64,000 nt of DNA from positions 62,001 through 126,000 of the IMG/VR virus record IMGVR_UViG_2724679563_000003; one strand, written 5' to 3'. Shown here one piece after another: positions 1,603-51,527 of the stretch (positions are counted from its first letter, which is position 1; every line of letters starts with the position of its first letter). Origin of the DNA: an uncultured virus (IMG/VR IMGVR_UViG_2724679563_000003). Its lineage: Duplodnaviria; Heunggongvirae; Uroviricota; Caudoviricetes. The notes beneath the pieces are model-generated. The model was not told the DNA's origin. It searched no databases and saw only the letters and a list, made by a program, of their open reading frames with translations. Position numbers and translations under genes: made by a program.

Positions 1603-1667
1603 AGAGAACGATATAAAATATTCATTTTAAATAAAATAATTTTAAAGTTTAGATTGGAAGTGATATA

Positions 1668-2678
1668 GTGGCAAAATATATACCTAAAAAAGATTATAGT
1701 CATAACTTAATAGCAAAATATAACTTTGAAGAAACAAGTGGTAATATTTGCATAGATAGTACAGGAAAATATAATGGTGCTTATGTTGGTACAACAAGTA
1801 TTGTTGGAATAGATGGTAATGCTAGAAGTTTTAATGGTGAATCTGATTGTATTAATTTTAATAATTCAATAATACCGTTAGGAAAAAAGAGTGTTAAATT
1901 TAGAATTAGACTTCAAAATAATTTAATGAAAAATCAGAATGTTATTTTTTATGTAGGAAATGATAATTACAAAAATAGTGGAAGCTTACAGTGTTCTTAT
2001 TTAAGGGATGCACAAGAAATAAGGTTTGCGTCTGGGAAACAAGATAGTTCTGGTTCTTGGCAAGTTGTATTCGATCTAAAATACAAGTGTATTTTAACAG
2101 ATAGCAAGTGGCATGATATATTATTAACTTTTGATAATAATATATCCAAAATGTATATTGATGATTTAATAAACCCAGTTGAACAAATGACAAAATTAAC
2201 TGATGAAAATATTTCTTATTATAATAGAAATTTTTCTATAGGTGGATTAGTAGATTCAAAAGAATATTGTTTAAAAGGCTTGTTAGATAATTTTGAAATA
2301 TACAATGAAGTAATAGAGTTTACAAATAAAAAATATCTAATAAATCAAAATGAAAATTATTATTCAATTAATTCTAATTTCCTAAATCTCGGACAGCCTA
2401 TAGATAATACTCAATTAGAAAATTGGTACAATAAATATGGTGCAGATGATGTAAATATAATAACTCAAAATCTAAACAATAAAGAGTTTCCTATGACTAA
2501 AAATGAAAGTGGAATATGGGAAACTGATTTTCAATTAGATATGAATGATGTTGCAGATAATATTGACTTGGTTGATATGGATGAAAACAATAAATCTATT
2601 AAATACAATTGTAATGATTATAGGATAATAGACTTATGTGATGATGAATTTGATATAAGAATGTTAAAAGAAAAATAG
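1668..2678 (+). CDS. LamG/concanavalin A-like domain protein
   Basis: 'LIAKYNFEE...DSTGKYNG', 'WHDILLTFD', 'LKGLLDNFEIYN'; GTG start after GGAAGTG RBS. Confidence 0.8.
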   Translation: MAKYIPKKDYSHNLIAKYNFEETSGNICIDSTGKYNGAYVGTTSIVGIDGNARSFNGESDCINFNNSIIPLGKKSVKFRIRLQNNLMKNQNVIFYVGNDNYKNSGSLQCSYLRDAQEIRFASGKQDSSGSWQVVFDLKYKCILTDSKWHDILLTFDNNISKMYIDDLINPVEQMTKLTDENISYYNRNFSIGGLVDSKEYCLKGLLDNFEIYNEVIEFTNKKYLINQNENYYSINSNFLNLGQPIDNTQLENWYNKYGADDVNIITQNLNNKEFPMTKNESGIWETDFQLDMNDVADNIDLVDMDENNKSIKYNCNDYRIIDLCDDEFDIRMLKEK

Positions 2679-2703
2679 AGAAGGATTAAACTAACTCCTT
2701 CTC
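2678..2703 (+). terminator. Probable terminator hairpin after LamG cluster
   Basis: GAGAAGGA...TCCTTCTC inverted repeat right after the stop codon. Confidence 0.5.
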
Positions 2704-2926
2704 TTATAAAATGAATAGGGATAAAATAGCTAATATTTATAATAATGTTACTCATATGTTAACATAAATTATAAAATATGTAAACCTTTCTTATTTAGTT
2801 TAAGTTGGCTGTAGAATTTAACTATAGTATAAAAGGTAGCCTATTTGTTTTTTAATTTCAAAAATTTCAGTAGAATCTATGCAAATAATTTGATAAATAT
2901 GATAAGCTTTTTATTGATAATAATTA

Positions 2927-2974
2927 TTATATATCCATTTATGGTTTTATATATAACTTTAAATGGATATATAA
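2927..2974. repeat. Perfect 15-bp inverted repeat with 18-bp spacer upstream of recombinase 1
   Basis: TTATATATCCATTTA (2927-2941) / TAAATGGATATATAA (2960-2974). Confidence 0.85.
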
Positions 2975-2999
2975 ATAAAGAATTAATATAATTTAATAT

Positions 3000-3031
3000 T
3001 TTCTTCCCATAAGAATAGTTATGGGAAGAAA
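3000..3031. other. dif/lox-like palindromic site (13-6-13), putative tyrosine recombinase crossover site
   Basis: TTTCTTCCCATAA-GAATAG-TTATGGGAAGAAA; ATAA-N6-TTAT core as in Xer dif sites; 47 bp before a tyrosine recombinase gene. Confidence 0.7.
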
Positions 3032-3078
3032 TTGCTAAAAAAATCATAATATATTATAATATTCTTGAGGTGTAATAT

Positions 3079-3891
3079 ATGAATGAAAACATAAGCCATT
3101 TTCAAGAATATTTAGTTAAAAATAAAAAAGATTTAAAAACAATTGAATCCTATACTACAGATGTTGTGTTGTTTTTCCAATATATAAAAAAGCCCATTGA
3201 AAATATTGATGACTTAGATATTGAAAAATATAAAAACTTTCTTTTTAATAAGGGATATAAGGTTTCATCTATTAATAGAAAAATGGTTGCTTTAAATATA
3301 TTTATGAAATTTTGTGATAAGAATATAAATATAAGCCAAGAAAAAGTTCAAGTCCAAAATTTCTTAGATAATGTATTAGAAGGTGATGAACTTCTCAAAA
3401 TTGTTAAACAAGCAGAATTAAATCAAGATTATAGAGCTAAAACTTTACTTTTAACAATGTATTATACTGGAATGAGGATCAGTGAATGTCTCCAATTAAC
3501 AGTTTATGATATTAACAAAGATACAATTATTATTAAAGGTAAAGGAAGAAAATATAGAAATGTATTTATTCCAAATAAACTAAAATTAATATGGAAAGAG
3601 TATATGAATTATAGAATTAAAAAAGGAGACAAGCTATTTACTGGCATACGAGGTGGTATAACAAGAAGATATGCAAATGATATTTTTAAAAAATATGCAC
3701 TATTAGCAGGAATAGATAAGGAAAAAGCACATAATCATAATCTCAGACATTTATATTGTAGAAAAATGATTTCTAAAAACATAGATATAGCTACGCTAGC
3801 TGATCTGGTTGGACATTCAGACATCAATGTTACAAGGAAATATTTGGTTAAATCTAAAAAAGAATTGTTAGATATTATTAATGAATTATAA
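3079..3891 (+). CDS. Tyrosine recombinase (XerC/D-like)
   Basis: SAM-like N-terminus; catalytic motifs 'TGMRISE', 'KGKG', 'HNLRH', 'LVGHSDINVTRKY'. Confidence 0.93.
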   Translation: MNENISHFQEYLVKNKKDLKTIESYTTDVVLFFQYIKKPIENIDDLDIEKYKNFLFNKGYKVSSINRKMVALNIFMKFCDKNINISQEKVQVQNFLDNVLEGDELLKIVKQAELNQDYRAKTLLLTMYYTGMRISECLQLTVYDINKDTIIIKGKGRKYRNVFIPNKLKLIWKEYMNYRIKKGDKLFTGIRGGITRRYANDIFKKYALLAGIDKEKAHNHNLRHLYCRKMISKNIDIATLADLVGHSDINVTRKYLVKSKKELLDIINEL

Positions 3892-3949: not shown

Positions 3950-4147
3950 ATGAGATATTACTTGTGTTTTTCATGGAAACAGAAAGAGTTTCTAAAAGAA
4001 CATGATTTTAAATATGAATCTAAAGCTAGGCACATTGGAAACGGAAAAGTTTTTTACTTCTATTTTTGGAGCTATCGATTAGATTTATGTCTAAGAGAAT
4101 ATAGTGAGATCAAAAGAATTGAATTAGATTTAAAAAAGAGATTTTAG
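3950..4147 (+). CDS. Small hypothetical protein (DUF5659-like), paralog of next ORF
   Basis: 'YYLCFSWKQKEFLK...Y...RH' shared with 4205..4390. Confidence 0.65.
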   Translation: MRYYLCFSWKQKEFLKEHDFKYESKARHIGNGKVFYFYFWSYRLDLCLREYSEIKRIELDLKKRF

Positions 4148-4204: not shown

Positions 4205-4390
4205 ATGGACATTAGATATTACCCTTGTTTTAGTGGTAAACAAAAAGATTTTTTAAAGAGTAAAGGAATAAATTATTTAATTAAATGTAGGCATTTTGAA
4301 AGTGATAATAAAATGTGGATATTTATATTTGATGAAAATAGGAAATTAGAAAATGCTTTAGAAGAATGGACTAAGAATAGACCTGGTTAA
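4205..4390 (+). CDS. Small hypothetical protein (DUF5659-like)
   Basis: AAGGAG RBS; 'YYPCFSGKQKDFLK...Y...RH...LENALEEW'. Confidence 0.7.
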   Translation: MDIRYYPCFSGKQKDFLKSKGINYLIKCRHFESDNKMWIFIFDENRKLENALEEWTKNRPG

Positions 4391-6082: not shown

Positions 6083-7042
6083 ATGGCTAATGAATTAAAA
6101 AGGAGTAAAAGAATTATAATTGGCGATGATAATATTCAAAATGAAATAAATACCGAAAATTTAAAGCTGCTTAAAAAATATGAAAGAGATATGCAAATGA
6201 GAGAACTAAGTAATAAGTCTATTTATTCTTATAAATGTGATTTAATGGCATGGATGAGATATTTAGTTATCAATCAATTTAACCCAGTTGCAACAGAATT
6301 AAATGAAGATGATATAGAAGAATTTATATTTTATTGCAAAGAACAAGGTAATAACACAGAAAGAATTAAAAGAAGAATGGCTAGTTTAAGTGCTTTTTAT
6401 AAGTTTTTAAGAAGAAAAAGAATAATAAAAGAAAATCCTATGGAGTTCATTCCTAGACCAAAAAAGGGATTACCTGTTGTTGTACAAACCTTTTTAACTA
6501 AAGAACAGTATCAATTAATGAAGAAAAAATTAGAGAAACAAGATGATTTTCAATTAAGAGTATATGCTTCGTTTTCAATTTCAACTATGGCTAGGGTCAA
6601 TGCAATAAGCAATGTCACTTGGTCTCAAATAGATTTTGATAATAGAACTGTAGATGATGTCTTGGAAAAGGAAGGCAAGATTGTAACATTATACTTCTCA
6701 AAAGAAGTTAAAGAATTATTATTACAACTAAAAAAAGAAAGAGAAGAAAAAGATATAGATAGTAGTTATGTTTTTGTTACAAAATATAATGGAAAAATAG
6801 ACAAAGTAGATACTAATACATTAACTAGATGGGCTAAAAAAATTGGAGAAATGATTGATGTTCCAACATTACATCCTCATGATTTTCGTCATTCAGGAAG
6901 CCAGCTCTTAATGTTATCTGGAATGCCTATAGAGACTATTTCAAATTTATTATCCCATTCAGGATTGGATGTCACAAAAAATCATTATTTAAAACAAGAT
7001 AAAAGAAAAATGCAAAAAGAAAAAGATAAATTTGAAATCTAA
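6083..7042 (+). CDS. Tyrosine recombinase/integrase
   Basis: 'STMARVNA' (R), 'EKEGK', 'HPHDFRH', 'LLSHSGLDVTKNHY'; SAM-like N-domain 'RRMASLSAFYKFL'. Confidence 0.92.
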   Translation: MANELKRSKRIIIGDDNIQNEINTENLKLLKKYERDMQMRELSNKSIYSYKCDLMAWMRYLVINQFNPVATELNEDDIEEFIFYCKEQGNNTERIKRRMASLSAFYKFLRRKRIIKENPMEFIPRPKKGLPVVVQTFLTKEQYQLMKKKLEKQDDFQLRVYASFSISTMARVNAISNVTWSQIDFDNRTVDDVLEKEGKIVTLYFSKEVKELLLQLKKEREEKDIDSSYVFVTKYNGKIDKVDTNTLTRWAKKIGEMIDVPTLHPHDFRHSGSQLLMLSGMPIETISNLLSHSGLDVTKNHYLKQDKRKMQKEKDKFEI

Positions 7043-7091
7043 TATAAAATAATTTTAAAATCATATTCTTAATACATATAAACAAAAGAGG

Positions 7092-10036: not shown

Positions 10037-10459
10037 ACAACTACTTTCCACCTTTCTTAAATTGCTTTATTTCATGTTTTAATTGTTCTATAATTTCTTT
10101 ATCTGTATCATTTTTATAATTAGTTTTCTCTATTAGTTCCATAGCTTGTACATCATTTATTTCTGATATGTGTTTTTTTATTATTTTTATGTACTTGTTT
10201 ATATTCATTTAATTGCCCTCCTAGATTTTATATAGCAGTAATAAGAGTATGCATAAACACCATTAACATACCTGTAATAATACCCATGAAGTATTCATCA
10301 AAGAATGTAGATTTGGTTGTTTTAGTAATTCTATCACCTACAAAATAAATTATTCCAGTCATAAGTAAGCTTAATAAATATCTCATATGTATTCCTCCTT
10401 TCAGTTTTGATAAAAGTTGAGTTTTATAGCATCTTTGTTAAATTATTTTATAATAGACA

Positions 10460-11347: not shown

Positions 11348-11569
11348 CTCCTTTTAATATCATCAAATTGTTTTATATTAATATAAATTTATCATTTTAT
11401 TTATATTTTTCCTTCTTTTCTTAATATATACCACACTCCTATAAAGCCACCTGTACCTGTTCCTGTTAGCCATATTATAAAATTAGGTGCTATATGATTT
11501 TTAGATATTGTAAGTCCAAATACATTCCAAAGTATTATAAATAAAAAAATTAATAAATTCTTTTTAATT

Positions 11570-11791: not shown

Positions 11792-11792
11792 A

Positions 11793-12451: not shown

Positions 12452-12482
12452 GATTTCACCTACCTTTATTTATTAAATTATT

Positions 12483-12758: not shown

Positions 12759-13171
12759 TTCGCACCTCCTTTATATTATTAAATTGTTTTACGTTAAAAT
12801 ACTGATTTTATTGCATTTTTATCCTTGAAAAATGTAGCATAAGTGAGTGTTTGAGAGTATTCAAGAGCAAAATTCAGTATTTTTATTAATAATAACTATA
12901 AGCAAGAGAGAAAGATTATAAATTAAAGTATGAGGTCTTTTGTTATGATATTAAGTTTTGTGATTTCTCTCTTGTATATTACAATATTTTTGAAATGCGA
13001 CTATTTTTTAAATAGCCTTTTTTCTTTTGAAGTATCTATATCCTTGCTTTTACAATTAGGGCATTCAGAACCCTTACTTCCTCCATAGACACAATATATT
13101 GTTCCACATTTTAAGCATTTAGCCATATATACTTACCACTTTCTAATTACATATTTATTTCATTTTGTGAA

Positions 13172-15266: not shown

Positions 15267-15282
15267 ATAAATAATTAATAAG

Positions 15283-19674: not shown

Positions 19675-19770
19675 ATTGCTTTAAAATGCCGATTTTATAT
19701 CATTTTTATACTTGAAAAACATAGTATAAATGAGTATTCAAGAGTAAATAAGAGATGATTTTTGATTATT

Positions 19771-21413: not shown

Positions 21414-21477
21414 GCTATAAAAAAGTATTTTATCATTAAATTATTTTGTATTGTTGTAAAAGCAATATTTTATTAAA

Positions 21478-22325: not shown

Positions 22326-22921
22326 TTAAACTTCCCTCCTATTTTAAACTGTTATAAGTTGACCTATGAACCCTATCGAGAATCCTAATCCTATTATTAC
22401 TGCTATTAAACTAAGTATAATGATAGCTACCTCTTTTTCTTTAATTCCTACTATTAACCCCCATAATCCTCCAATAAAAACTAATAAAGAACATAGCGAA
22501 ATCATTATTAAACCAATTATCATTTTAACCTCCTTGCATTTGGATAAAATTAACTTTTTATGTTATCTATTAATAACATTTAATTCTAAAATATCTTCTA
22601 AAACACATACTTCTTGTCTAAGAGTTTTGTAGATAAGAATATTTTCCGTATCTCCTTTTTCCAAACTATCAGCTTGTTTTCTTAATATATTTATTAATCG
22701 TTTTTCTATTTGTTCTTGGGTTTTCAAACTATTACACCTCTCTTTTTATAAAGCTTTTTCCGTTACATTGTCTACATGGAAAAATAAAATTATGTTTGAT
22801 ATAAGGATTATTACTACTATGTACAATTCTAATATTATACTTTAAACATTTATGATCTATTCTTTTATCTATTTGTTCTTCTTCAGTTAAATTAATAAAT
22901 TGACATTCATTACAATTAATG

Positions 22922-24952: not shown

Positions 24953-24991
24953 ATGTTATAATTTATGATATAAAATCTAAATTTTATATCG

Positions 24992-26754: not shown

Positions 26755-26976
26755 ATAATCATTCCCTTTCTAAATTGTTTTGTTTTAATTGCAGATTACT
26801 ATAAATCATTTATTTTATTAAATTATTCTTTTTCATTTTAGAAACATATAATGCAGGATAAATATAAGATAAAGTATGTGCTGGTGTAAACTCTTGAATA
26901 CTCCAATTTTTATACATGTTTTCAAGAATTTTATTAACTTCCTCATCTACTTCTTTAATAATATCTTCCTTACTTA

Positions 26977-28209: not shown

Positions 28210-28279
28210 CTTTTACTCACTCCTATCGTTAAATTATTTTACGTTATAAAAGAATGGTTTTATTAACTTATTTATGTAA

Positions 28280-34299: not shown

Positions 34300-34338
34300 T
34301 AAATTCCCTCCAAAATATATTTGTTTAAAACTAAAATT

Positions 34339-34653
34339 TTATAATATTTTGTTCCTTAATTGAATAATTTCTTTAAGCTTATTTCTTCTACATTCTTTCA
34401 AACTTTCTGTCCCTTTATCAACTTGATATTCTACCTCTTCTATTAGCAAAGCAATTCCTTCGTGCAAAAGTTGCTTTTCTCTTTCATTTAATAAATCCTC
34501 ATATAAATAATGGATTTCTTCATCTCCATTACCGCAATATGGACAAATATAGGTAATTAAAACTTCATTCTTTTTAATTCTTCTACAAGACATAACGTCT
34601 GCTTTTTCATTACAGTTTGTACATATTATTTTAATGTTTTCTATAACCAACAC
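34339..34653 (-). CDS. Zn-ribbon hypothetical protein
   Basis: 'CTNC...CPYCG'. Confidence 0.6.
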   Translation of the reverse strand: MLVIENIKIICTNCNEKADVMSCRRIKKNEVLITYICPYCGNGDEEIHYLYEDLLNEREKQLLHEGIALLIEEVEYQVDKGTESLKECRRNKLKEIIQLRNKIL

Positions 34654-36471: not shown

Positions 36472-36535
36472 TTTATTCCCTTCCTTATTTTAAAATTGTT
36501 TTATATTATAAAATTGAACTTTTATCATATTTTTT

Positions 36536-38571: not shown

Positions 38572-38636
38572 GTTTGTCTATTCCTCCTATAGATTTGATT
38601 TATTAAATTATTTTGAATAAAATAGTTAATTTATTT

Positions 38637-39107
38637 TTATTCCATATCAATATTATAATTCATTTTTAAAGTTCCTTTTGGTATATATATTTTAATTTTT
38701 CCTGTACCCAAACAAGGCATATCTTTAAGTTTTGGATTTACAAATTCTTTTTTATAAAAAATTATTTTTGGTTTTTCTATATTATTTTCAATCATATAAA
38801 CATTATCATTATTTTTAATCTTTTTTATTTGAGTATTATCATCTTTACAAGTCATATAGTAGTAATATATTTCTCCATTTATATTTCCACTGCCTAAAAA
38901 GAAGTTTCCATTTATTGATTGATTATCTTTAATTGCTTTAATAAAAACAGTAGTGTCTATAACTTCTTTTTTAGATGCATGTATATTAATCATAAAAAAT
39001 ATTAAAATCATTAATATGAAATTTATTAAGCAACCCATGATAAAACCTTTTATTGTTGCTAGTATGTATTCCAAAAGATTAGGATGCCCTATAGTCCAAA
39101 CAATCAT
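38637..39107 (-). CDS. Membrane-anchored hypothetical phage protein (true start probably further upstream)
   Basis: TM segment; 'GNFFLGSGNI...YYYY...IYIPKG'. Confidence 0.65.
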   Translation of the reverse strand: MIVWTIGHPNLLEYILATIKGFIMGCLINFILMILIFFMINIHASKKEVIDTTVFIKAIKDNQSINGNFFLGSGNINGEIYYYYMTCKDDNTQIKKIKNNDNVYMIENNIEKPKIIFYKKEFVNPKLKDMPCLGTGKIKIYIPKGTLKMNYNIDME

Positions 39108-39224
39108 AGATTTAATACAAATAAATATACATATTATCCATACAACTACAGCTACACTTATTTCAATATATTGTATTTTAATTACCTCCTTTTGTTAGAT
39201 AAGGAATGAAATTAATCATTCCTA

Positions 39225-39749
39225 TTACTTAACTCCTGTACTTCCTATTCCACCTCTGTCCTCATTACCTAAGTCTTCTACTTCTATAAACTTTAATATA
39301 GGCATTTTTTCTTGTATTCTAAACTGTCCCATCCTTTCTCCTAATTCAATTTCACCTTCTCTAGTTGCATAAAATATCATCATCCATTCATCATTATTAC
39401 CACAATAAGATTCATCTATAATACCTTCTGAATTAACTAGTAATAGTCCATAGTTTTTAAATGTGCTACTTCTTGGTAACACATAGGCTTCATATCCTAT
39501 AGGTAATTCCATACTAAAACCTAATTTTATTTTTAATACCTCACCTTTTCTATAATAAACAGTTGTTTTTCCATTATGTATTTTTGTAAATAAATTTGAA
39601 TCACTTTCTTCTTTTAAGCCTTTAGTATTCTTTACTACTTTGATATTACAAGCTCTAACGTCTATCCAGTCTCCCTTATCTATTTTCTTTAGCTTCCAAT
39701 CCTCATTGTTATGATGGTATTTAATTCTTACTTCTTTATTCATATTCAC
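39225..39749 (-). CDS. dut: Trimeric dUTPase
   Basis: 'GDWIDVRA', 'PRSS', 'GIIDESYCG', 'GERMGQ', 'RGGIGSTG'. Confidence 0.93.
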   Translation of the reverse strand: MNMNKEVRIKYHHNNEDWKLKKIDKGDWIDVRACNIKVVKNTKGLKEESDSNLFTKIHNGKTTVYYRKGEVLKIKLGFSMELPIGYEAYVLPRSSTFKNYGLLLVNSEGIIDESYCGNNDEWMMIFYATREGEIELGERMGQFRIQEKMPILKFIEVEDLGNEDRGGIGSTGVK

Positions 39750-39811
39750 ATCTTTCCTCTCTTTTTAAAAAATTACTTGTAAGAAATGGGTGTCCAAGCC
39801 TTACAAGTATT

Positions 39812-39840
39812 ATATTACCAAATTGTTTTATAATTGTCAA
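39812..39840 (-). promoter_or_regulatory. Sigma-A promoter with box A in spacer
   Basis: TTGACA-attATAAAACAATTTgg-TAATAT. Confidence 0.75.
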
Positions 39841-39862
39841 GTATTTATTTTAATTTATTAAA

Positions 39863-40507
39863 TTATTTTATATTATGTAATAGTTTATCTATTAATCCTA
39901 CTAAATATCCTCCAACAAAGTTACCTATAATTATAACACTTATTTTAATAATAGTACATTTATTCCACATTTGTCCACATGAAATATAAAACATATCAGC
40001 AATACTATGTTCAAATTCACAGAATACAAAAATGACTACTGGAATTAGAATTGAAATAGTTTTATCTACTAAATATTTTTGTCTTGAAGATAACAAAACT
40101 CCATATCCTACTAATGCTCCGCAGAAAACTGCTAATATAAACAAGCTAATATTTGTATCTGTAATTCTTAATTGTACTAGCTTATATGCCTTAGTCTGTA
40201 AAATTACATTTAACCTTGTTAATCTAAACATATAAGCTGCTAAATATGCTCCTATAAAGTTTCCTATCAATGATTGTAAAATTAATAAAATATGTTCTTT
40301 TTTATTTTGAGCAAATGGTAATAATGGATTTAATCTAGTATATAATAAATTACTAAAATTCATAACTAAGAATAACCCTATTACAAACAACGTACTTCCT
40401 ATAAGTTTATTATCAGTTAAAAGATAGGATATACATCCTATAGAAATGTATATCCCAACCATTACTGAATTTAAAGAATTTAATAATATCTGTTTAACTC
40501 TACTCAT
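39863..40507 (-). CDS. Formate/nitrite transporter (FNT) family channel
   Basis: Six TM segments; 'LYT', 'IGNFIG', 'AVFCGALV', 'FVFCEFEHSIADMFY', 'GNFVGG'. Confidence 0.88.
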   Translation of the reverse strand: MSRVKQILLNSLNSVMVGIYISIGCISYLLTDNKLIGSTLFVIGLFLVMNFSNLLYTRLNPLLPFAQNKKEHILLILQSLIGNFIGAYLAAYMFRLTRLNVILQTKAYKLVQLRITDTNISLFILAVFCGALVGYGVLLSSRQKYLVDKTISILIPVVIFVFCEFEHSIADMFYISCGQMWNKCTIIKISVIIIGNFVGGYLVGLIDKLLHNIK

Positions 40508-40511
40508 AAAA

Positions 40512-41000
40512 TTAATAATCTGTTCCTTTCTTATAAATTCTTTGATTTGACGTTGCTAGTTTAATCCCATATTGTATATTATTATTTGTTTTTAATTTTT
40601 GATTATAAGTACCACATTTAATATAATCAACATACTTTAAAACATTATTATAATTTTGTTTTATATAATCTAAATCATATCCTGTATAAATCCAAATTTT
40701 TATATTCTTAAACTCATTTTTAATTATTTTAGAAAAATTCAGAACATCTTTTATATTTGCTTCATTTAAAGGGTCTCCCCCACTAAAAACAACTGCATCA
40801 TAATGTTTTATATTTTTTCTTAAATGATTTGTAATTTCATTTTTTATATTCTTATCAAAATTTTCTCCATTATTGCTATTCCAAGTGGAAGGGTTATGAC
40901 ACCCTTCACACTTATGTGAACAACCTGATAAAAAAATAGTTATAGAATATCCATTTGCATTAGTATCATCAAAATAAACTATGTTTATATATTTACTCAT
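40512..41000 (-). CDS. nrdG: Anaerobic ribonucleotide reductase activase (radical SAM)
   Basis: 'GCSHKCEGCHN', 'SGGDPL', 'IWIYTGY', 'SNQRI'. Confidence 0.93.
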   Translation of the reverse strand: MSKYINIVYFDDTNANGYSITIFLSGCSHKCEGCHNPSTWNSNNGENFDKNIKNEITNHLRKNIKHYDAVVFSGGDPLNEANIKDVLNFSKIIKNEFKNIKIWIYTGYDLDYIKQNYNNVLKYVDYIKCGTYNQKLKTNNNIQYGIKLATSNQRIYKKGTDY

Positions 41001-43182
41001 AAATATTCAACTCTCTTCTTTCAACTTCATCTTGCTTTCCCTTATTCATCTGCTTTTTATCTGTAGTAAGATATCCTGTTACTATTGCCAAATTCTCTAC
41101 ATTATCACTTCCACAATTCTCACATTCATCCATAAAAGCCCCTATTGAATATCCACAATCCATACAAGTTGCAATAGGATGTGAAATTCTTATATAAGGA
41201 ATATCTTTTTCCAATGCGTAATCTATAGCCTTTGTGATAGCTTTTTCATTATAATTTGCACCATCAACTTCTATGTGAAAAATATTACCTCCATTTGCAT
41301 ATTTAGCGAATCTACTTTCAATATCTATCTTTTTAAAAATTGGCACTCCTAGTTCAACAGGACAGTGATGTGAATTAGTAATGTATTCTTTATCAGATAC
41401 CCCTTCTATTACTCCGAATTGCCTTCTAATTCCCTGTAATGCTTGTTCTGAATATCCTTCACTAGGAGATGCGTATGTTACAAAATTTAACCCTTCTTCT
41501 TTTATGCACTTATCACAATAATTCCTAATTGTTTTTACTATTTTTACTCCTAAATCTTCAGCTTCTTTATTTTCACAATGATAATATCCTGTTAATGCTT
41601 TTACACATTCTGCTACTCCAATATAGCCTATAGCCAAGGAGTTGTTTCTCAAAGCCATTTCAGTTGTTGTTATACATTTATCTGCATCCATTATTGTTTG
41701 ATTTCCATACATGAAAGATGCTACAGAGGGTTTTTGTTTTCTCATAATATCATATCTAATTAATAAACTTCTTCTAGCACAATCTAATATTTCATTTAAT
41801 CTGTCAAAGAATTTATTTACATCTTTATCACTCTCTAATGCCAAATAAGGTAGATTGATAGAAACTGGTAAATTATTTCCTCTACCTAATTTACTATAAT
41901 TTTGTTTGAATATATTAAAACCAGTCATCGTGCGGCATCCCATGATATTCATTTCTTCTTCCCAACAAGTAGCTTTGTTTCCACTCCAATCACAATTGAC
42001 TATTGTAGGATATAATCTTTTATGTAAAACTTTTTGAGCCAACATTCTAAGATAATAATACTTGTCATTAGGAAACCTATTAATTCCTTTTTTTACTTGA
42101 AAACAAGTTATAGGAAATATGGCTGTTCTATTATGTTTTCCTATTCCTTTATGTAATTCTTTTAAAAACCCTTCTATAATATAAGCACTTTCTTCTTCAT
42201 TTTTCCAATCTATTAATCCTATATTAATACTTGAAAATGGCAATTGATGTCCACTTCTTGATTGTAACGTAACTAAGTTTGTTATTAATGCTTGATGTGC
42301 TTGTTCTACAGATTTATCTATTAATTTTTTAGCTTTTGAGTATCTATCTCCTAATAATCCTCTTGCCTCTGAAAAAGATATCTGTTTTGGTACTTTAATA
42401 TTCAAATCTAATATATCTACTACTTTTGCTACTTCCTTTGCTATGGTTTTCTTTAAAAATGGTATCATATAAATTGAAAAATTCATTAATCCACAACCAC
42501 CAAATTGGTCAAGAGATTGTGTTTGTATAATCACAGCTAATAACTGACAAGCTGACTGATAAGAATTCGCAGGTTTAGTATCTCCTTGTCTTGTGCTGAA
42601 ACCATTATGTAATAGTTTAGGATAATCAAGCAAAAGACAATTATGCATTCCTAATACTGTTTTGGGATAATCATGTTGCTTTAATATAGTTTTATCATTT
42701 AACTCTACTATATCTTTAGGTAATGTATTATTTGCCATATTTTTTTCAATTGCTTCTACTATTCTTAATTCTTTTCCTCCAAAGTTATTTTCATCTATAT
42801 TAGCATTACTGTTTTCTGTGGATATTCTTTCTATTATCTCATTTTTTAGTTTTAAGGTATAATTAGATATTCTTATTCTCTCTCTCTTTTCTCTATAATC
42901 TTTATATGCTTTTGCTATCAATTTATCAGCATTGTATAATTCATCAATTATAATATCTTGTATTTCTTCTATATGTATACTATGTGTATATGATGTTTTA
43001 ATTCGATCTTGAATTTTATCTACTAAGACATCTAACCATAAATGATTATTACTCTTATCATCTACTATATTTTTATTTATACAAACTTCATCAGCAGCTC
43101 TTTGTATTGCTATTTTAATTCTGTTTCTATCAAAATATTTTACTCTTCCATCTCTTTTTATTACCTTGATATTTTCTGACAT
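40993..43182 (-). CDS. nrdD: Class III anaerobic ribonucleoside-triphosphate reductase
   Basis: ATP cone 'VIKRDG', 'HNC', 'MGCRT', 'YITNSHH', Zn 'CMDCG..CENCGS', glycyl-radical loop 'VTGYL'. Confidence 0.95.
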   Translation of the reverse strand: MSENIKVIKRDGRVKYFDRNRIKIAIQRAADEVCINKNIVDDKSNNHLWLDVLVDKIQDRIKTSYTHSIHIEEIQDIIIDELYNADKLIAKAYKDYREKRERIRISNYTLKLKNEIIERISTENSNANIDENNFGGKELRIVEAIEKNMANNTLPKDIVELNDKTILKQHDYPKTVLGMHNCLLLDYPKLLHNGFSTRQGDTKPANSYQSACQLLAVIIQTQSLDQFGGCGLMNFSIYMIPFLKKTIAKEVAKVVDILDLNIKVPKQISFSEARGLLGDRYSKAKKLIDKSVEQAHQALITNLVTLQSRSGHQLPFSSINIGLIDWKNEEESAYIIEGFLKELHKGIGKHNRTAIFPITCFQVKKGINRFPNDKYYYLRMLAQKVLHKRLYPTIVNCDWSGNKATCWEEEMNIMGCRTMTGFNIFKQNYSKLGRGNNLPVSINLPYLALESDKDVNKFFDRLNEILDCARRSLLIRYDIMRKQKPSVASFMYGNQTIMDADKCITTTEMALRNNSLAIGYIGVAECVKALTGYYHCENKEAEDLGVKIVKTIRNYCDKCIKEEGLNFVTYASPSEGYSEQALQGIRRQFGVIEGVSDKEYITNSHHCPVELGVPIFKKIDIESRFAKYANGGNIFHIEVDGANYNEKAITKAIDYALEKDIPYIRISHPIATCMDCGYSIGAFMDECENCGSDNVENLAIVTGYLTTDKKQMNKGKQDEVERRELNIYE

Positions 43183-43218
43183 CCAATTCCTTCTTTCTTT
43201 TTAATAAATTATTTTGTT

Positions 43219-43404
43219 TTAATCTCTCCATGTGTTTTTAAATGCTTCCTCACCTTCTTTCACAAGTTTATTATATTTATTTTTATTAACTTTGAATCTT
43301 TTATTGTCTATATTTTGCATGACATATTCATTGTTATTAATAATATATAGTAAATCCATATCTATATGACTTAACATAAATTCATCATCAAAACCCAATT
43401 TCAT
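43219..43404 (-). CDS. Hypothetical protein
   Basis: AAGGAAG RBS preceded by box A and site B. Confidence 0.55.
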   Translation of the reverse strand: MKLGFDDEFMLSHIDMDLLYIINNNEYVMQNIDNKRFKVNKNKYNKLVKEGEEAFKNTWRD

Positions 43405-43481
43405 AGTATGCTCTCTTCCTTTATATATATTTTTAAATTATTTTATATTAATTTAAAATCAACCTTTTATAAACTATATTT

Positions 43482-44756: not shown

Positions 44757-44778
44757 ATTCTAAATCCTCCTTTATAAA

Positions 44779-45138
44779 TTATTTTAATCTATTTTCTAAT
44801 TCCTTCAATAATTCTTCATTTGTATAATCTGATAATTGTTTTTCTAATACAACATCAACATCATTAATTGTTTCACCATGTTCTAAATCTTTATAGCTTT
44901 TAATCTTTTTAACTTTGAACTGTTTAATTAATTGTTCTTGTGAAAAATTCCATATTCCCATTATTTCTCCTTCTGGAGTACATACAACAGAAATTATGCT
45001 ATTATTATTTTCAACATTAAATGTTACAATATCTCCTGTGTTAAGCTTGTTTCCTTTAATATCTATTTTATTTGTTTCTTCTCCTATAGGGAATTTTTCT
45101 TCAAAATATTGTAGATACCCTGTAAATTTCTTACTCAT
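44779..45138 (-). CDS. Hypothetical phage protein
   Basis: GAGGAGG RBS. Confidence 0.65.
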   Translation of the reverse strand: MSKKFTGYLQYFEEKFPIGEETNKIDIKGNKLNTGDIVTFNVENNNSIISVVCTPEGEIMGIWNFSQEQLIKQFKVKKIKSYKDLEHGETINDVDVVLEKQLSDYTNEELLKELENRLK

Positions 45139-45272
45139 TTAGTTATCCTCCTCTTTTTTATTGGACATTAATTCTTTATTAATTGATTTCAAATAAAATC
45201 CATATTTTAAACCATCTGAACCGTTGTATATTATAGCTTTAATCAACTATAATATACAACTTATGTATTAAA

Positions 45273-46136: not shown

Positions 46137-46308
46137 TATTATTTATCCTCCTCATTATCTTTAAATATTTTATTTGAAATTGCTTTTGTTAAATCTACCA
46201 ACTTGCTGCATATAGGTATTAATGATATAAAGGCAATAATTGCTATCAAAAATACAATTAAATAGAAAACTGGATTCATTCTAACCACTTCCTCATTAAA
46301 TTATTTCA

Positions 46309-46701
46309 TTATAATATGGGGTCTATATACCATTTTCCTTCCGCAATAACCTTTCTCATAAATCCATCTGAACAGTCTCTGCTAAAACCATTGTGAAAAA
46401 TTTCTTTTAACGTATGATATTTAGTAAAAAATGGGTCATTCAGTACTAGATAATGTTTTACTTTAACTTTTTTATCCGTATTTAATACAAGCTTAAAATC
46501 TACAGGTTTTTCAACTACTTCCCATGATTCATTCGTTTTTAACTCTATATTGCTAGTTTCTTCTCCAAATTCATAAAATTTTATATCGCCATTCTTATTT
46601 TTAACCGTCCATCCACTCTGATTTTTAAATTCTAAGTATGGATTTTCTGTTATTTCCATAATCATTCTCCATGTTAAATATGTATGTTTACCATTGCACA
46701 C
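46309..46701 (-). CDS. Hypothetical phage protein
   Basis: 'EGKWYI' module as in 28280 ORF; start uncertain. Confidence 0.55.
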   Translation of the reverse strand: MCNGKHTYLTWRMIMEITENPYLEFKNQSGWTVKNKNGDIKFYEFGEETSNIELKTNESWEVVEKPVDFKLVLNTDKKVKVKHYLVLNDPFFTKYHTLKEIFHNGFSRDCSDGFMRKVIAEGKWYIDPIL

Positions 46702-46723
46702 AATTCAATCCTCCTTTAATAAA

Positions 46724-47365
46724 TTATTTTATATATAAAGTTGCATTAGCAATTTTATTTTCTTTATTATTAATTAACCATTCTCCTGTAACGTTTGGTA
46801 TAAATACATCAACTTTACATTCTGTTTTATCTTCATTTAGCCATTGTATTGCTCCACCTGAATCTACTACTTTATAATTACCCATACCTTCTATATTTAA
46901 AATACTTCCATATGTAATATCTTTAGGCATAGCACAAACTTTCATATTGTGTGATGTTAAATTCTTGCCTTTTTTATCTAATTGCCCACCTTCTAAATCA
47001 TTGTCAATATTTGTATAATATGTCACATATACTTTTATTGATTTAATTTGTCTACCGCCTGACAAATCACCTCCTCTCGATAATCTAGCTTTTTTTAATT
47101 GTTCATTTTTATTTTTTAAATTACTTACACTATTTTCTAAGTTCTTTATTTTCCTATCTTTTTCGCTATTTGTGTTTTCTATGTTTTTAATCCTTATGTT
47201 CTTATTATCAATCTCTTTTGTTAATGTTTTATTTCTAGTTTGCTCTTTCTCAATTGTCTTTTGTTGAGTATGTATTTGTTGTTCGTTTTTATTCTTATTA
47301 TGTAGTAAATACATATTACTTATAGCTAAAATACAAATAATAGCTAATAATCTTTTTGATTTCAA
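46724..47365 (-). CDS. Secreted 3D-domain (cell-wall lytic transglycosylase-like) protein
   Basis: Signal peptide, coiled coil, 'SRGG', 'VTYYT', 'VVDSGGAI', 'VDVFIP'. Confidence 0.85.
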   Translation of the reverse strand: MKSKRLLAIICILAISNMYLLHNKNKNEQQIHTQQKTIEKEQTRNKTLTKEIDNKNIRIKNIENTNSEKDRKIKNLENSVSNLKNKNEQLKKARLSRGGDLSGGRQIKSIKVYVTYYTNIDNDLEGGQLDKKGKNLTSHNMKVCAMPKDITYGSILNIEGMGNYKVVDSGGAIQWLNEDKTECKVDVFIPNVTGEWLINNKENKIANATLYIK

Positions 47366-47385
47366 ACAATCATCCTCTCTTTTTT

Positions 47386-47727
47386 CTAGTCATCATCCCT
47401 CCAACCACAATTGGGACACTTTCTATAACTTATTAATTGATTACATTCTGTGCCAAAGTGTTCAAGTCTTTCAGTATCTCTCTTTGTTATTACAATTAAT
47501 TCCTCATTGCATTTAGGACATCTGCCATTATTAAAATTATAATCTTCAGCATTAGACTCTATCCCTTTTAAATTTTGTTCTAATTCTTTTATTTTATTTT
47601 CTTTTATTAAAGTTAAGAAATCTGTTGCAAGTTCATGTAATAAATTTAATCCATCATCTTTTAAATACATTTCTGGATTATGAAATATGTCTTTAAACTC
47701 ATTAAAATAAATGCTTCCTTTATTCAA
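47386..47727 (-). CDS. Zn-ribbon hypothetical protein
   Basis: 'CPKC...CPNCGW'. Confidence 0.6.
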   Translation of the reverse strand: MNKGSIYFNEFKDIFHNPEMYLKDDGLNLLHELATDFLTLIKENKIKELEQNLKGIESNAEDYNFNNGRCPKCNEELIVITKRDTERLEHFGTECNQLISYRKCPNCGWRDDD

Positions 47728-47749
47728 TCTCTCTCAACCTTTCTATTTA

Positions 47750-47778
47750 ATATTACCAAATTATTTTATATTAGTCAA
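47750..47778 (-). promoter_or_regulatory. Sigma-A promoter with box A in spacer
   Basis: TTGACT-aatATAAAATAATTTgg-TAATAT. Confidence 0.75.
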
Positions 47779-48144
47779 GCATATGTATTTGTTTTCTAAA
47801 TTATTTTAAATCTGCATAAACACTATGTATAGTCTGAGGTTTCTTATAATCTTTATGTAAATCTAATCTTTTACTTTTAATTAACTCCTTAAAAGGCTTA
47901 CAAAAATACTTATTATTATCATCTTGATAACAGCAATTGTCTTCTATGTCATGTTCTATTATTTCTCCTATTCTCCTATCTTCCCAAAGAAAATTACTAA
48001 TCTGGTTTACTTCTTTTTTAGATTTACATAATATATATAATGTTAATTGCTTCTCGTTTTTACCTGTTGTTTCAAATATTTTGTTCATTATTTTTCACTC
48101 ATCCCTTTTCAGTTTTATGTATTTGTTTTAAAATTATTTCATAA

Positions 48145-48762
48145 TCATTTCTTCCAAAATTTCCACTTAAACTTCTTTTTCTCTTTGTTTGCAAAGTAAT
48201 CACTTTGTAATCTTCCTAATTCTGATTTTAATAAATCATTATACTCTTTTAAACTTTCTACTTCTTTATCTAGTAATTCATTTTCTTGTTTTATGATATT
48301 ACAATAATTTTCCACATCTGCTTGTCCTCCAAGATAACCTAAAAGCCATAAGGCAGTACATAATAGATTATCATCACACATTTTTAATTCTAATTTAGGT
48401 ATTTTATCTCCATTCTTGTATGTTTTATTTTCTTTTAACTGAACAATAACTTCTACTTTATTGAAAGTTTCTTGATTATTTATATTGCCATAAATTTTAT
48501 TATCTATAATTGCTAAAGCTTGACCTTCCACTAAATCACAATCGGTTTGACATATGTAATGTTCATACTCAAATAAATCATTATAATAACCTTCGTAATC
48601 ACTTTTAGGATTAAATAAATCTATTTCTGTATCATCTTCTTTTTCTAACTTATTTAATTCATTAGTTAATTGATTAAACCATTCCTTATCTTTTGTTTCC
48701 AAAGCTAAATTAATCATATCTTTAAGAAACTCTTTATCTTGAATATCTGATATTTTAATCAC
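48145..48762 (-). CDS. IDEAL-domain hypothetical protein
   Basis: 'MINLALETKDKEWFNQLT' matches the IDEAL motif; C-terminal coiled coil. Confidence 0.7.
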   Translation of the reverse strand: MIKISDIQDKEFLKDMINLALETKDKEWFNQLTNELNKLEKEDDTEIDLFNPKSDYEGYYNDLFEYEHYICQTDCDLVEGQALAIIDNKIYGNINNQETFNKVEVIVQLKENKTYKNGDKIPKLELKMCDDNLLCTALWLLGYLGGQADVENYCNIIKQENELLDKEVESLKEYNDLLKSELGRLQSDYFANKEKKKFKWKFWKK

Positions 48763-48768
48763 CTTCTT

Positions 48769-49155
48769 TTAATGTTGTTTTGGTGGTGGCGGAGGTGCTG
48801 GAGCATTTGTTGGAGGGACTGTTTTAACGTTATCTTGATTATTTAGGATTATATTGGTTTTATTTTTATGTTCACAATCTTTTATCTTAACTTCCATTAA
48901 AGCCGATACCCCTTTTATTATTGCAATTATTATATATCCAAAAATTTTTATTAACCCCAATGGTAGAGTTATGATATTTACAATTATATCTCCTATGTAT
49001 ATACCTTGATATTTTTTGCTTTTCTTATGACTACTCCAATCTTTTTGAATATCTTTGCAGAGGACTAAATACCACATTAAACCACATAGAGTAGCAAGTC
49101 CATTTAAAAAAGGATTTTGCATAAAACAATCATATAGCATTTTAAATTTAATCAC
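48769..49155 (-). CDS. Membrane protein with Pro-rich tail
   Basis: TM segments; 'PPTNAPAPPPPPK'. Confidence 0.6.
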   Translation of the reverse strand: MIKFKMLYDCFMQNPFLNGLATLCGLMWYLVLCKDIQKDWSSHKKSKKYQGIYIGDIIVNIITLPLGLIKIFGYIIIAIIKGVSALMEVKIKDCEHKNKTNIILNNQDNVKTVPPTNAPAPPPPPKQH

Positions 49156-49178
49156 CTCCTAAACTTTTGATAAAAGAA

Positions 49179-49994
49179 TCATTTTATTAAATTGTTTTTA
49201 AAATAGTCTTCAACCATGCCTCGTCTTATTACTTTATCAAATTGAACAATAATATATAGTAAATACTTATCTAAATAAGGATTTAATTGCATCATACATT
49301 CAAGGGGTATTCCATAATAGGCTTCTGCTATGCCCCCTGCTATACAGGCTTGAGTATCAGTATCTCCACCTAGACTAACAGCTTTTCTAACAACATCTTC
49401 ATATGATTTCCCTTCAAGAAAACATATAATTGATTCTGGTACACTTCCTTGACAAGTTTCATCGAAAAAATAACTTGATCTTATATCTTTTATGCTTTTA
49501 TTTAAATTATAATCGAAGAACGTTTCTATAAATTCTTTAATTATCTTTTTAGGAGTTTTCATTCTTGCTAAATAAACACAAGCTGCTATAGCAGAAGCCC
49601 CTTTAATTCCTTCTATATGATTATGTGTTGCTATTGCTGATTCTTCTGCTTTATCCATTACAGTTTTTAAATCGTTGTATAGCCATCCTATAGGACTAAC
49701 TCTCATAGCTGAACCGTTTCCAAAACTATTATATGGTTTAGCATTATCAGATTCTAACCAATTTCTAAATGAATTACCATAACTGCAATTAGGATATTGA
49801 TTTCCCCACTCTTTATATGCTTGTTCAAAACTTTTATTATTTAAGATTGCATCTGCTGTAGCTATAGTTAAAACTGTATCATCTGTAAATTCACATTTTT
49901 TATCAAATAGTTTAAAATCTTCTGACTTGTTATTCCTAAGTTTACTAAATTCAAATCTTGAACCTATGATATCTCCTAATATAGCACCTTTCAT
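49179..49994 (-). CDS. ADP-ribosylglycohydrolase (DraG/ARH family)
   Basis: 'GAILGDIIG', 'FTDDT', 'GNGSAMRVSP', 'THNH', 'GGDTDT'. Confidence 0.93.
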   Translation of the reverse strand: MKGAILGDIIGSRFEFSKLRNNKSEDFKLFDKKCEFTDDTVLTIATADAILNNKSFEQAYKEWGNQYPNCSYGNSFRNWLESDNAKPYNSFGNGSAMRVSPIGWLYNDLKTVMDKAEESAIATHNHIEGIKGASAIAACVYLARMKTPKKIIKEFIETFFDYNLNKSIKDIRSSYFFDETCQGSVPESIICFLEGKSYEDVVRKAVSLGGDTDTQACIAGGIAEAYYGIPLECMMQLNPYLDKYLLYIIVQFDKVIRRGMVEDYFKNNLIK

Positions 49995-50050
49995 AAAAGC
50001 CCTCCTTTTTTATTAAATTATTTTTGATATATTTTAGCTTTTATTCAGTT

Positions 50051-50596
50051 CTAATTTAACCAAATTAACTCCCAATCACTATCCTTATAAATAGCTTCTA
50101 AGCCTTTTTTATCATCATCAAACCAATTACCATATTTAATTTCATTATATCCTTTGTGATGTTGTATTAGCTTATATTTTGCTTTCATATATCCTGCTTC
50201 ACAAAAGTCTAAAGCTGAATCCTCTTTTTTACCTTTTTCAATAACACCCTTTTTAACCATTTCTAAAACCAAATCCTCTTCAAAACAATCACTATCATAC
50301 CAAGGCATTTTTAAAGTGTATTTATAAATAGCTTTAACTAAATTATGTCTCTCACAAGCATTCTTCAAGGCTTCATAGAACAATCCAGTTCCCTCTATTT
50401 GACCATAAAAACTATAATAAGTTTCATTTTCATAGTTAAGTTGTGATCTATTATGCTTTTTATTATATTCAATATCTCTTTTAATTATTTCTTCTTTAAA
50501 AGTTTGTAAAAACTCTTTAGTTAGTAGTTTTCTTTTCCTATTAGGTAATTTAAAGTAATTTGAAATACCCCATCCTATATTCCCTTTTGTTCCCAT
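50051..50596 (-). CDS. Hypothetical protein
   Basis: 181-aa ORF with AAGGAG RBS. Confidence 0.65.
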   Translation of the reverse strand: MGTKGNIGWGISNYFKLPNRKRKLLTKEFLQTFKEEIIKRDIEYNKKHNRSQLNYENETYYSFYGQIEGTGLFYEALKNACERHNLVKAIYKYTLKMPWYDSDCFEEDLVLEMVKKGVIEKGKKEDSALDFCEAGYMKAKYKLIQHHKGYNEIKYGNWFDDDKKGLEAIYKDSDWELIWLN

Positions 50597-50755
50597 ATCT
50601 CACTTCTCTCCTTCATTAAACTATTTCATCATATTTTTTTCCCACATAGCTAAATATACGTAATTCCAACATCTTTTATACAGATATCAGCTCCTTTATA
50701 TATCCTTACTCTATTATATCATTAAACTCATTAAACCCTTTCCCAAATATATTGT

Positions 50756-51322
50756 TTATCTCCCATTTTCATATTCCTCCAATTTTTTATAAAACTCACT
50801 CAACTTAATTTCAACAAATCCTTCAGGAGTTTTCGTTTCTTCATTTATTTTATGACTATCTAATTTAACATATAGGTTATCTCCTACTTCAAATTGACTT
50901 AGTCTATATCCACCTAAAGATAAATTATTAGGAGATTTAGATTCAAAATAATCACCTATTCTTGGTTTTAATAAATTTATAATTATCTTATTATCTATAC
51001 AATACTGTGCAAATTCTTTACCTATTTTACTATTCTTTTTAAAACTACATAAGCCATATTGGTCTGGTTTACACAATGATTTACTTAGTTTTTCTTTATC
51101 TTCATCGGTTGGTATTATTGATAAAGAAATATCTCCCTTATCTTCTTGTAAAAATGGTTTGTTACAACACCCATCGCCACATAAATAATATCTTTCTGCT
51201 TGTATATTATTTTTATCTAAAAAGCTAAAAACAAATTTGCTCTGTTCTTTATCAGGTTGTATGTATTTCAGTACGTCTTTATAGTATTCACTTGATTCTT
51301 GTACTAAATATGCTTTTTCCAT
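50756..51322 (-). CDS. Hypothetical phage protein
   Basis: GAGGGAG RBS preceded by box A and site B; 'PEGFVEIKLSEFYK'. Confidence 0.7.
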   Translation of the reverse strand: MEKAYLVQESSEYYKDVLKYIQPDKEQSKFVFSFLDKNNIQAERYYLCGDGCCNKPFLQEDKGDISLSIIPTDEDKEKLSKSLCKPDQYGLCSFKKNSKIGKEFAQYCIDNKIIINLLKPRIGDYFESKSPNNLSLGGYRLSQFEVGDNLYVKLDSHKINEETKTPEGFVEIKLSEFYKKLEEYENGR

Positions 51323-51527
51323 TATAATCTCTCCCTCATTAAATTGTTTTATATTACTATAAAATTCTTATTTTATATCATTTTTAGCCTCTACAACCGT
51401 TGGTATCACTGGGCTGTGGAAATGATATTTTTAAGTTTTGGTCATTTTTCATAAAACGCTCATATATTGAACAGAAAATTATTTTTCTGATTTTTGAAAT
51501 TTTTCTGTTACAGATTAATATATGAAC

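Follow-up and report, generated by a model that had tools for sequence, protein, structure and literature searches.

In Acinetobacter plasmids, the accessory modules known as dif modules are separated by many short sites, each with inverted arms around a 6-bp spacer, and its describers call this system unique to Acinetobacter. In recombinase-mediated cassette exchange, an engineered system, two lox or FRT sites with unlike (heterospecific) spacers enclose a cassette, which is swapped for another one between the same pair. It is the unlike spacers that prevent excision. Here we describe a short palindrome, TAAAA-N6-TTTTA, in a 64,000-nt stretch of DNA (positions 62,001-126,000; hereafter the window) from the uncultured virus IMGVR_UViG_2724679563_000003. 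Most of its copies stand at gene junctions, they are very probably preferred landmarks for crossover, and dif modules and heterospecific lox/FRT exchange may be their nearest working models. The likeness is not complete. The arms of pdif are unlike, one a XerC and one a XerD site, in alternating orientation, while both arms of the palindrome are identical; the bearers are Firmicutes phages instead of Acinetobacter plasmids, the spacer of each position is kept across genomes and the order of modules is fixed. Engineered exchange, for its part, is man-made and uses a known enzyme, whereas the exchange considered here is read from comparative genomics alone.

Three other systems deserve comparison. 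Integrons, which are built by a tyrosine recombinase, also hold small accessory genes in arrays separated by repeated sites. Their attC site is a long imperfect palindrome that folds single-stranded and lies 3' of each cassette, whereas the present site is a 16-bp exact duplex palindrome that stays at its junction while the cassette changes. For these reasons, and because it shows no pairing covariation, the site was rejected as an attC; neither an integrase of the IntI type nor an attI or a shared promoter turned up. In T4-type phages, the PeSL are repeated intergenic elements of variable regions that mediate modular shuffling between close relatives, according to PMC2839356. A PeSL comprises a promoter and a stem-loop terminator and recombines through its own similarity, while the palindromes have only 10 nt in common and conserve a core unique to each copy. 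Within the same phage family as ours, PMC10516654 describes SPBRE, a repeated intergenic element bound by MrpR, a protein of tyrosine-recombinase fold that acts in repression and has lost recombinase activity. At PaimR, PyosX and PyorE of SPbeta, SPBRE and the palindrome are neighbours, but the two sequences differ. No earlier description of the palindrome was found in the literature on SPBRE/MrpR, SPbeta recombinases, relatives, transcription and the C. difficile big phage, Lazarevic et al. (1999) and the bioRxiv supplements not being covered.

The record is a single virus contig of 159,222 bp with 25.5% G+C. Its genes run on the plus strand to about 69 kb and on the minus strand from 70 kb to the end. 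The plus-strand block holds structural and lysis genes, a YonO-like RNA polymerase and a YOMG_N tail protein. The minus-strand block holds gyrase A and B, thymidine kinase, NrdD and NrdG, RNase H, a RecD-like helicase, the alpha subunit of DNA polymerase III (PolIII alpha), primase and a DnaB-like helicase. Because of this content, and because its 319-aa recombinase is kin to those of c-st and phiCD211 and to YomM, the phage is, on its sequence, a large one of the SPbeta/c-st kind from a low-G+C Firmicute.

Is the palindrome really over-represented? The window contains 17 exact copies, compared with 3.35 +/- 1.73 in 100 dinucleotide shuffles (maximum 7). When the spacing k between the arms was varied from 0 to 20, k=6 accounted for these 17 copies, of which 12 have their centre in intergenic DNA; every other spacing gave 0-9 copies with 0-3 intergenic. 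The whole genome holds 40 copies at k=6 versus 3-20 at other spacings. Genes were called by a crude longest-ORF (open reading frame) rule, so that junction counts are approximate; with ORF ends trimmed by 15 nt, 34 of the 40 copies fall at gene junctions (0-8 at other spacings), and the six in coding DNA correspond to the background level (3-13). The excess over background asserted in a preliminary description of this DNA is thus borne out. All fourteen exact copies listed there were recovered, together with three more at 438, 3438 and 4131, and the replication block is free of them as had been noticed, no exact copy occurring in the window past 51375. The copy at 7056 does start 14 nt after the last base of a recombinase ORF (6083-7042). 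The four one-mismatch copies (7056, 11384, 26802 and 38618) all exist, but one-mismatch copies as a class are not enriched, since junctions hold 38 of them at k=6 and 33-67 at the other spacings; the element is either exact or absent, without a one-mismatch shoulder. The extension to ATAAAA, said to be frequent, amounts to an A at -1 in 50 of the 80 half-sites of this phage.

The enrichment is a property of phage DNA. Among palindromes with 5-nt arms, TAAAA-N6-TTTTA is the most over-represented in this phage, in SPbeta and in phiCD211. SPbeta has 34 copies at k=6 against 0-4 at other k; c-st has 31 against 7 of the control, and phiCD211 26 against 7. Relatives from IMG are enriched as well (motif/control 42/4 in G009, 51/5 in G010 and 25/7 in G011, with G001 likewise enriched). 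The motif is absent from two relatives, Sundance (no copies) and KKP_3916 (2 copies). These two have over-represented palindromes of their own, AATAC-N2-GTATT and GCTTG-N1-CAAGC respectively, each in 8 copies. Host chromosomes are not enriched (24 versus 47, 116 versus 206, 54 versus 46 and 53 versus 51), which rules out the site of a host factor. The sole host genome with an excess (72 versus 40) carries a YonO gene 97% identical to that of SPbeta, and presumably holds an SPbeta-like prophage.

The layout of the site is that of tyrosine-recombinase core sites of the dif, lox and FRT type, with two inverted arms around a 6-bp spacer. In SPbeta, the outer arm positions are symmetric too (T 57/68, Y 62/68, T 46/68), and these weaker positions (T-Y-T-N-N-W) lengthen each arm to about 11 bp, giving a site of 11+6+11 = 28 bp. 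These are also the dimensions of pdif. The arms are symmetric and do not appear to resemble B. subtilis dif. Could the element work in RNA instead, as an AU hairpin in polycistronic mRNA that serves as terminator, processing site or translational signal? Its place between a stop codon and the next ribosome-binding site would suit such a role. The stem, however, would have only five base pairs, all A-U, around an unconstrained loop, and no Watson-Crick covariation was found in flanks or core among the 34 sites of SPbeta and the 40 of this phage, so that the site appears to be read as sequence on duplex DNA and not as a hairpin. A symmetric element shows no strand preference, GC-rich terminators occur at other junctions of the window, and a hairpin would leave unexplained both the core conservation and the block boundaries described below. 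We therefore reject an RNA hairpin, consider that the site is probably not an intrinsic terminator, and hold an RNA-level role of any kind to be extremely improbable.

Does the 6-bp core carry information? Cores differ among the sites of one genome, while the same map position keeps the same core in related phages. In a 24-kb early region of SPbeta with 12 palindromes, identical 16-mers occur in order at 11/12 positions in phi3T, 11/12 in Goe13, 11/12 in Goe11 and 9/12 in Goe14. For 3, 5, 5 and 4 of these shared 16-mers, respectively, both 100-nt flanks are at the level of unrelated DNA (at most 0.69 identity, the random baseline having a mean of 0.59 and a maximum of 0.69). Between SPbeta and Goe13, consecutive palindromes are kept although the DNA between them is unrelated. 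The same holds for the distant relative G011, whose GyrA is only 50% identical to that of our phage: ten of the 40 16-mers are identical and colinear, five of these ten have both flanks unrelated, and the cores agree at 60/60 bases while the adjacent 6 nt are 65-70% identical. All these counts rest on exact 16-mer matching and are given out of all palindromes examined, which should be borne in mind when they are taken as support for an address. Two cores are common to this phage and c-st, at non-orthologous places and, counted by eye, at chance level. The preliminary description had assigned a role to the core, and its position-specific conservation in unrelated flanks agrees with that. It had also invoked a tolerance of non-matching cores like that of Tn916, which points the wrong way, as cores are identical at the same map position across genomes.

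If cores are conserved by position, what happens to the DNA between them? Three relatives share long blocks of at least 97% identity with this phage, broken by replaced segments: the close relatives G009 and G010, found by a GyrA search, and G003, from a PolIII search. Block boundaries were scored at that threshold. Searches of a phage collection (megablast), of genome and metagenome contigs (PolIII alpha) and of viral contigs (NrdD) gave no closer relative, the NrdD search finding no relative at all. Among 25 distinct boundaries, 11 fall no more than 26 nt from an exact palindrome, a number not attained in any of 20,000 draws of random junction positions (mean 2.0). At a distance of up to 4 nt there are six (mean 0.75, P=0.00015). 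Two further boundaries fall at the one-mismatch copies 26802 and 38618. Between G009 and G010, 9 of 20 boundaries are within 26 nt of a palindrome (mean 1.49). Boundaries common to several relatives are not all independent events. A second junction motif, AAAAYAATTT, though commoner than the palindrome, is not enriched at boundaries (3 versus 2.1, P=0.35).

Palindromes stand at both ends of five variable segments, whose flanks are 98-100% identical. One is the NrdD/NrdG module (Table 1), in whose place G003 has, with the two bounding sites retained, about 4.7 kb that is for the most part unrelated; the exceptions are a 141-bp stretch matching at 88% and a weak protein match of the NrdD-like kind. 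The same backbone thus carries different site-bounded modules, the pattern that marks dif modules. That the sites delimit exchanged gene modules, as had been proposed, is supported by this and by the concentration of boundaries. The mode of exchange differs from the proposal, which supposed that single cassettes are inserted and excised much as in integrons: two sites are retained, and the DNA that lies between them is replaced. A test of whether breakpoints fall inside the core had also been suggested. Breakpoints do cluster at palindromes, but base-level alignments show that identity mostly spans the entire palindrome including its core and then stops at the outer edge; a stop exactly at the border of core and arm was seen in two cases, at 24971 (G009) and at 38618 (G003 and G009).

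It may be added that the anaerobic ribonucleotide reductase module appears as an accessory cassette, being absent from the otherwise 99.7% identical G003. In the comparison with G009, the replication block (window 51376-64000, and on to genome 129435) starts at the final base of palindrome 51360; it is below 97% identity in G009 and G010, with flanks of 98-99.9%. Its PolIII alpha ORF has 1182 aa here and 1532 aa in L010, a difference in sequence which suggests that the longer form carries an insertion such as an intein. The features of the window are collected in Table 1.

Table 1. Palindromes, exchanged segments, candidate recombinase genes and second-motif examples, in window coordinates
Feature	Position	Strand	Remarks
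Palindrome	1614..1629		exact; junction in plus-strand block; AAAATAATTT motif 3 nt downstream
Palindrome	4131..4146		exact; overlaps last codons of ORF 3950-4147, upstream of ORF 4205-4390
Palindrome	10411..10426		exact; 99.6% identity block with G010 ends 26 nt past it
Palindrome	12795..12810		exact; junction; 36 nt before start of ORF 12483-12758
Palindrome	19682..19697		exact; in 225-nt junction upstream of TTGACA-N17-TATAAT promoter-like site
Palindrome	21457..21472		exact; same 16-mer at colinear position in distant relative G011
Palindrome	22545..22560		exact; G010 identity block ends 10 nt past it; same 16-mer in G011, flanks diverged (0.64-0.66)
Palindrome	24971..24986		exact; 99.97% block with G009 ends 1 nt past it, identity stopping at core/arm border; same 16-mer in G011, flanks diverged
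Palindrome	28247..28262		exact; same 16-mer in G011
Palindrome	34326..34341		exact; TAA doubles as stop codon of upstream gene; same 16-mer in G011, one flank conserved, the other not
Palindrome	36509..36524		exact; same 16-mer in G011, flanks diverged (0.63-0.65)
Palindrome	43454..43469		exact; near-identity with G003 and G009 resumes here, the upstream end of the swapped NrdD module
Palindrome	45194..45209		exact; junction
Palindrome	49171..49186		exact; directly after AAAACAATTTAA motif, before ribosome-binding site
Palindrome	51360..51375		exact; G009 identity block ends at last base, the edge of the replication block
Copy	438..453		exact; inside ORF; background class
Copy	3438..3453		exact; inside 270-aa recombinase ORF; background class
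Copy	7056..7071		one mismatch; just after recombinase ORF 6083-7042; without breakpoint evidence
Copy	11384..11399		one mismatch; AAAACAATTT motif 9 nt downstream; without breakpoint evidence
Copy	26802..26817		one mismatch; identity blocks with G009 and G010 begin at it
Copy	38618..38633		one mismatch; identity with G003, G009 and G010 breaks off within it, past the core
Swapped module	38636..43397	-	156-aa ORF, dUTPase-like, formate/nitrite transporter family, NrdG, NrdD, 61-aa ORF
Segment	24988..26799	-	in G009 a diverged version (83-89%) between flanks 99.97-100% identical
Segment	10453..13159	-	replaced or diverged in G010; one end beside palindrome 10411, the other not at a palindrome
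XerC/D-like tyrosine recombinase, 270 aa	3079..3891	+	catalytic R, K, H, R, H, Y aligned; candidate enzyme only
YomM-like tyrosine recombinase, 319 aa	6083..7042	+	candidate enzyme only
AAAAYAATTT examples	12473-12485, 19660-19673, 28228-28241, 43432-43445, 51338-51351	-	

How might such sites work? We propose that the palindromes are fixed junction landmarks of SPbeta/c-st-type genomes, whose invariant 5-bp arms would presumably be held by a phage-specific protein. The 6-bp core, unlike among the sites of one genome and the same at the matching map position in relatives, would then serve as an address. When two phage genomes are present in one cell, modules between two landmarks would be replaced via crossovers at or in the palindromes; matching cores would permit the reaction, and differing cores would keep the 40 sites of one genome from scrambling. 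As the sites are retained and the intervening DNA changes, exchange between genomes at matching sites would be the simplest mechanism. We give a dedicated site-specific mechanism, matched by the core, an even chance. In a wider scenario, a natural form of ordered cassette exchange would exist in the SPbeta-type phages of Bacillus and Clostridia: with dozens of sites alike in their arms, each bearing a private core as heterospecific address, a dedicated enzyme (a recombinase or a cut-and-ligate nuclease) would trade the module between any two addresses for the allele of a co-resident phage, the content being shuffled and the order fixed. This is offered tentatively, at somewhat less than an even chance.

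A number of observations weigh against a dedicated exchange at the palindromes. Twelve of the 25 block boundaries lie away from them. In the 24-kb region of SPbeta, compared by low-stringency blastn, 9 of 55 ends of high-scoring segment pairs are within 15 nt of a palindrome and none is inside a core; SPbeta junctions show a breakpoint in 9/11 cases with a palindrome and in 19/39 without, a difference of only P=0.051. An extra gene of Goe13 is bounded by a duplicated ribosome-binding region and not by a palindrome. For a relative of 90-97% identity in public runs, where reads and contigs of three runs were compared with window 38001-58000, only one of about 12 piece ends (43433) is near a palindrome. 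Neither circles nor cointegrates nor products of cleavage came to light. According to bioRxiv 10.1101/2020.05.06.055103, phi3Ts-SPbeta hybrids made in the laboratory recombined in homologous regions at 15/16 sites. On the side of the enzyme, the motif is not tracked by any family of recombinases: Sundance and KKP_3916, both without it, have YopP homologues, YomM-like proteins occur in all, and the 270- and 304-aa Xer-like proteins are without an SPbeta homologue. For recombinase sites it is also unusual that the arms are either exact or missing, one-mismatch variants forming no shoulder.

Could ordinary recombination account for the pattern? The palindrome might be an operator placed in the control region 5' of each module and bound by a dimeric regulator that the phage encodes. 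At diverged junctions it would be the only shared sequence, and homologous or annealing-type recombination would cross there, much as with the PeSL cassettes of T4 or lambdoid boundary sequences; cores would look conserved as the exchange itself required identity. The placement of the sites fits this, since they lie 15-60 nt upstream of start codons, often beside the promoter-like AAAAYAATTT or 14-49 nt upstream of TTGACA, and in 5/6 SPbeta cases the gene downstream and the palindrome move together. The half-sites are spaced by one helical turn, as a dimer would need, annealing proteins are encoded (a Sak4-like protein is annotated in SPbeta), and both the homology-formed hybrids and the T4-type shuffling cited above are precedents in its favour. 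On the other hand, an uncontacted core should drift, yet at the sites shared with G011 it is identical throughout while neighbouring bases have diverged. Homologous exchange over only sixteen identical bp would be very short, and AAAAYAATTT, which is longer and commoner, is no breakpoint hotspot. Nor is the position relative to promoters fixed: the spacing to the second motif is 9 nt at eight sites and 3, 4, 6 or 15 nt elsewhere, which, with SPbeta sites that abut ribosome-binding sites, also counts against a Class II activator site at -41.5. Four motif-bearing phages gave no Sigma70_r2 match, and no homologue of YosL (a ribbon-helix-helix protein required for lysis in SPbeta) turned up in this phage, c-st, phiCD211, Sundance or KKP_3916. 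An operator combined with ordinary short-homology recombination is in our view unlikely, but it stays the main rival because of the off-palindrome boundaries, the P value of 0.051, the hybrids formed by homology and the lack of a co-varying recombinase.

Other promoter identities were tried and rejected. The site is not a -10 element, as its position 6 is not fixed as T in SPbeta. A phage sigma-factor promoter fails on the missing Sigma70_r2 match and on the variable spacing to promoter-like elements. Nor is it a YonO promoter, since the YonO start region upstream of yonK reported by Forrest et al. has no copy at up to one mismatch.

Which protein, then, might act at the palindromes? A tyrosine recombinase would be the most likely type of enzyme, yet this too falls short of probable. 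Three Xer-like ORFs have all catalytic residues aligned and are candidate recombinases. The 319-aa recombinase, a distant YomM homologue, is 61% identical to c-st CST104 and 46% to a phiCD211 protein, and is also conserved in Sundance and KKP_3916. When 233 ORFs were screened for presence or absence in SPbeta, phiCD211, Sundance and KKP_3916, none followed the pattern of the motif. The earlier suggestion of a phage tyrosine recombinase as the actor is not supported, no family of them co-varying with the motif. Alternatively, a site-specific nuclease might cut within the core and leave unique overhangs, by which the phage ligase would rejoin fragments of two genomes in the correct order only, or the break might seed repair from a relative in the same cell. 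Recognition that is exact or absent is typical of nucleases, and restriction enzymes with interrupted palindromes cut likewise. The core-as-address pattern would hold under such a mechanism, the arms lack a one-mismatch shoulder, and the phage encodes an ATP-dependent DNA ligase. But no candidate nuclease is common to the motif-bearing phages, no molecule ends were found at the sites (among few reads, from relatives), and we know of no phage that cuts its own genome at 40 places. Such a nuclease is accordingly very unlikely, though less so than a role in RNA.

The proximity to SPBRE raises the further question of whether the palindrome is the operator of an MrpR-like master repressor. The phage does encode an MrpR/YopR homologue, outside the window, with matches to Pfam MrpR_N_CB (29.2 bits) and MrpR_C_cat (28.7 bits; cut-offs 27) and to PDB 8bj6 and 8a0a (E ~3e-9). 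In SPbeta (NC_001884 76171, 99498 and 129297), the distance from palindrome to SPBRE is about 12 nt at PaimR, 80 nt at PyorE and 5 nt at PyosX, in that order. MrpR binds the SPBRE repeat, and ten ChAP-seq peaks with the SPBRE motif are given for SPbeta in PMC10516654, where it is also said that extra factors may set its specificity in vivo. However, SPBRE in SPbeta promoter regions reads AAATAYAAAWAATATGTATA, unlike the palindrome, and SPbeta holds 34 palindromes versus these ten peaks. The identity with the MrpR operator was rejected for these two reasons, and we regard it as having next to no chance of being right. A better counterpart of SPBRE is AAAAYAATTT, which resembles it and, judging from sequence, may be the operator of the MrpR-like protein. 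The longer form of this second motif is AATATAAAAYAATTTAAT, and the genome has 104 copies. At junctions 74 copies are sense and one antisense, mostly 17-36 nt before start codons, and the motif forms the 17-nt spacer of seven TTGACW-N17-TAnnnT promoters.

Some neighbouring genes should also be recorded. The MrpR/YopR homologue (genome 155573-156649, minus strand) adjoins a YopQ-like 489-aa gene (156618-158087, minus strand), which parallels yopQ-yopR of SPbeta; in piece coordinates the pair is L006:13573-14649 and 14618-16087, and a 168-aa TPR-like ORF abuts the contig end. Also outside the window, the YonO-like single-chain RNA polymerase (genome 343-2901, plus strand) has an RdRP fold (Pfam RdRP, E 1.4e-19) and is 26% identical to SPbeta YonO; a palindrome stands 52 nt upstream of it. 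Four tandem paralogous ORFs (window 59-2678 and genome 61735-62667), which close the plus-strand block, carry Laminin_G_3, a concanavalin-like domain, and are perhaps receptor-binding proteins. Two IS605-type OrfB/TnpB genes lie outside the window in the tail-gene region (genome 41838-43031 and 46874-47986, plus strand), each adjoining a small helix-turn-helix or ribbon-helix-helix ORF on the opposite strand. A plus-strand ORF at window 22366-22632 is probably spurious, because palindrome 22545 is followed by AGGAGG and a short hydrophobic ORF on the minus strand.

What would the palindromes mean for these phages? If crossovers are indeed addressed by the core, there would be an explanation for the way in which the gene order of very large temperate phages stays fixed although their accessory genes are traded with the precision of a single junction, and the palindromes would be a phage counterpart of the dif-module system. 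SPbeta, the genetic model phage of B. subtilis, carries 34 copies, so that the idea is directly testable.

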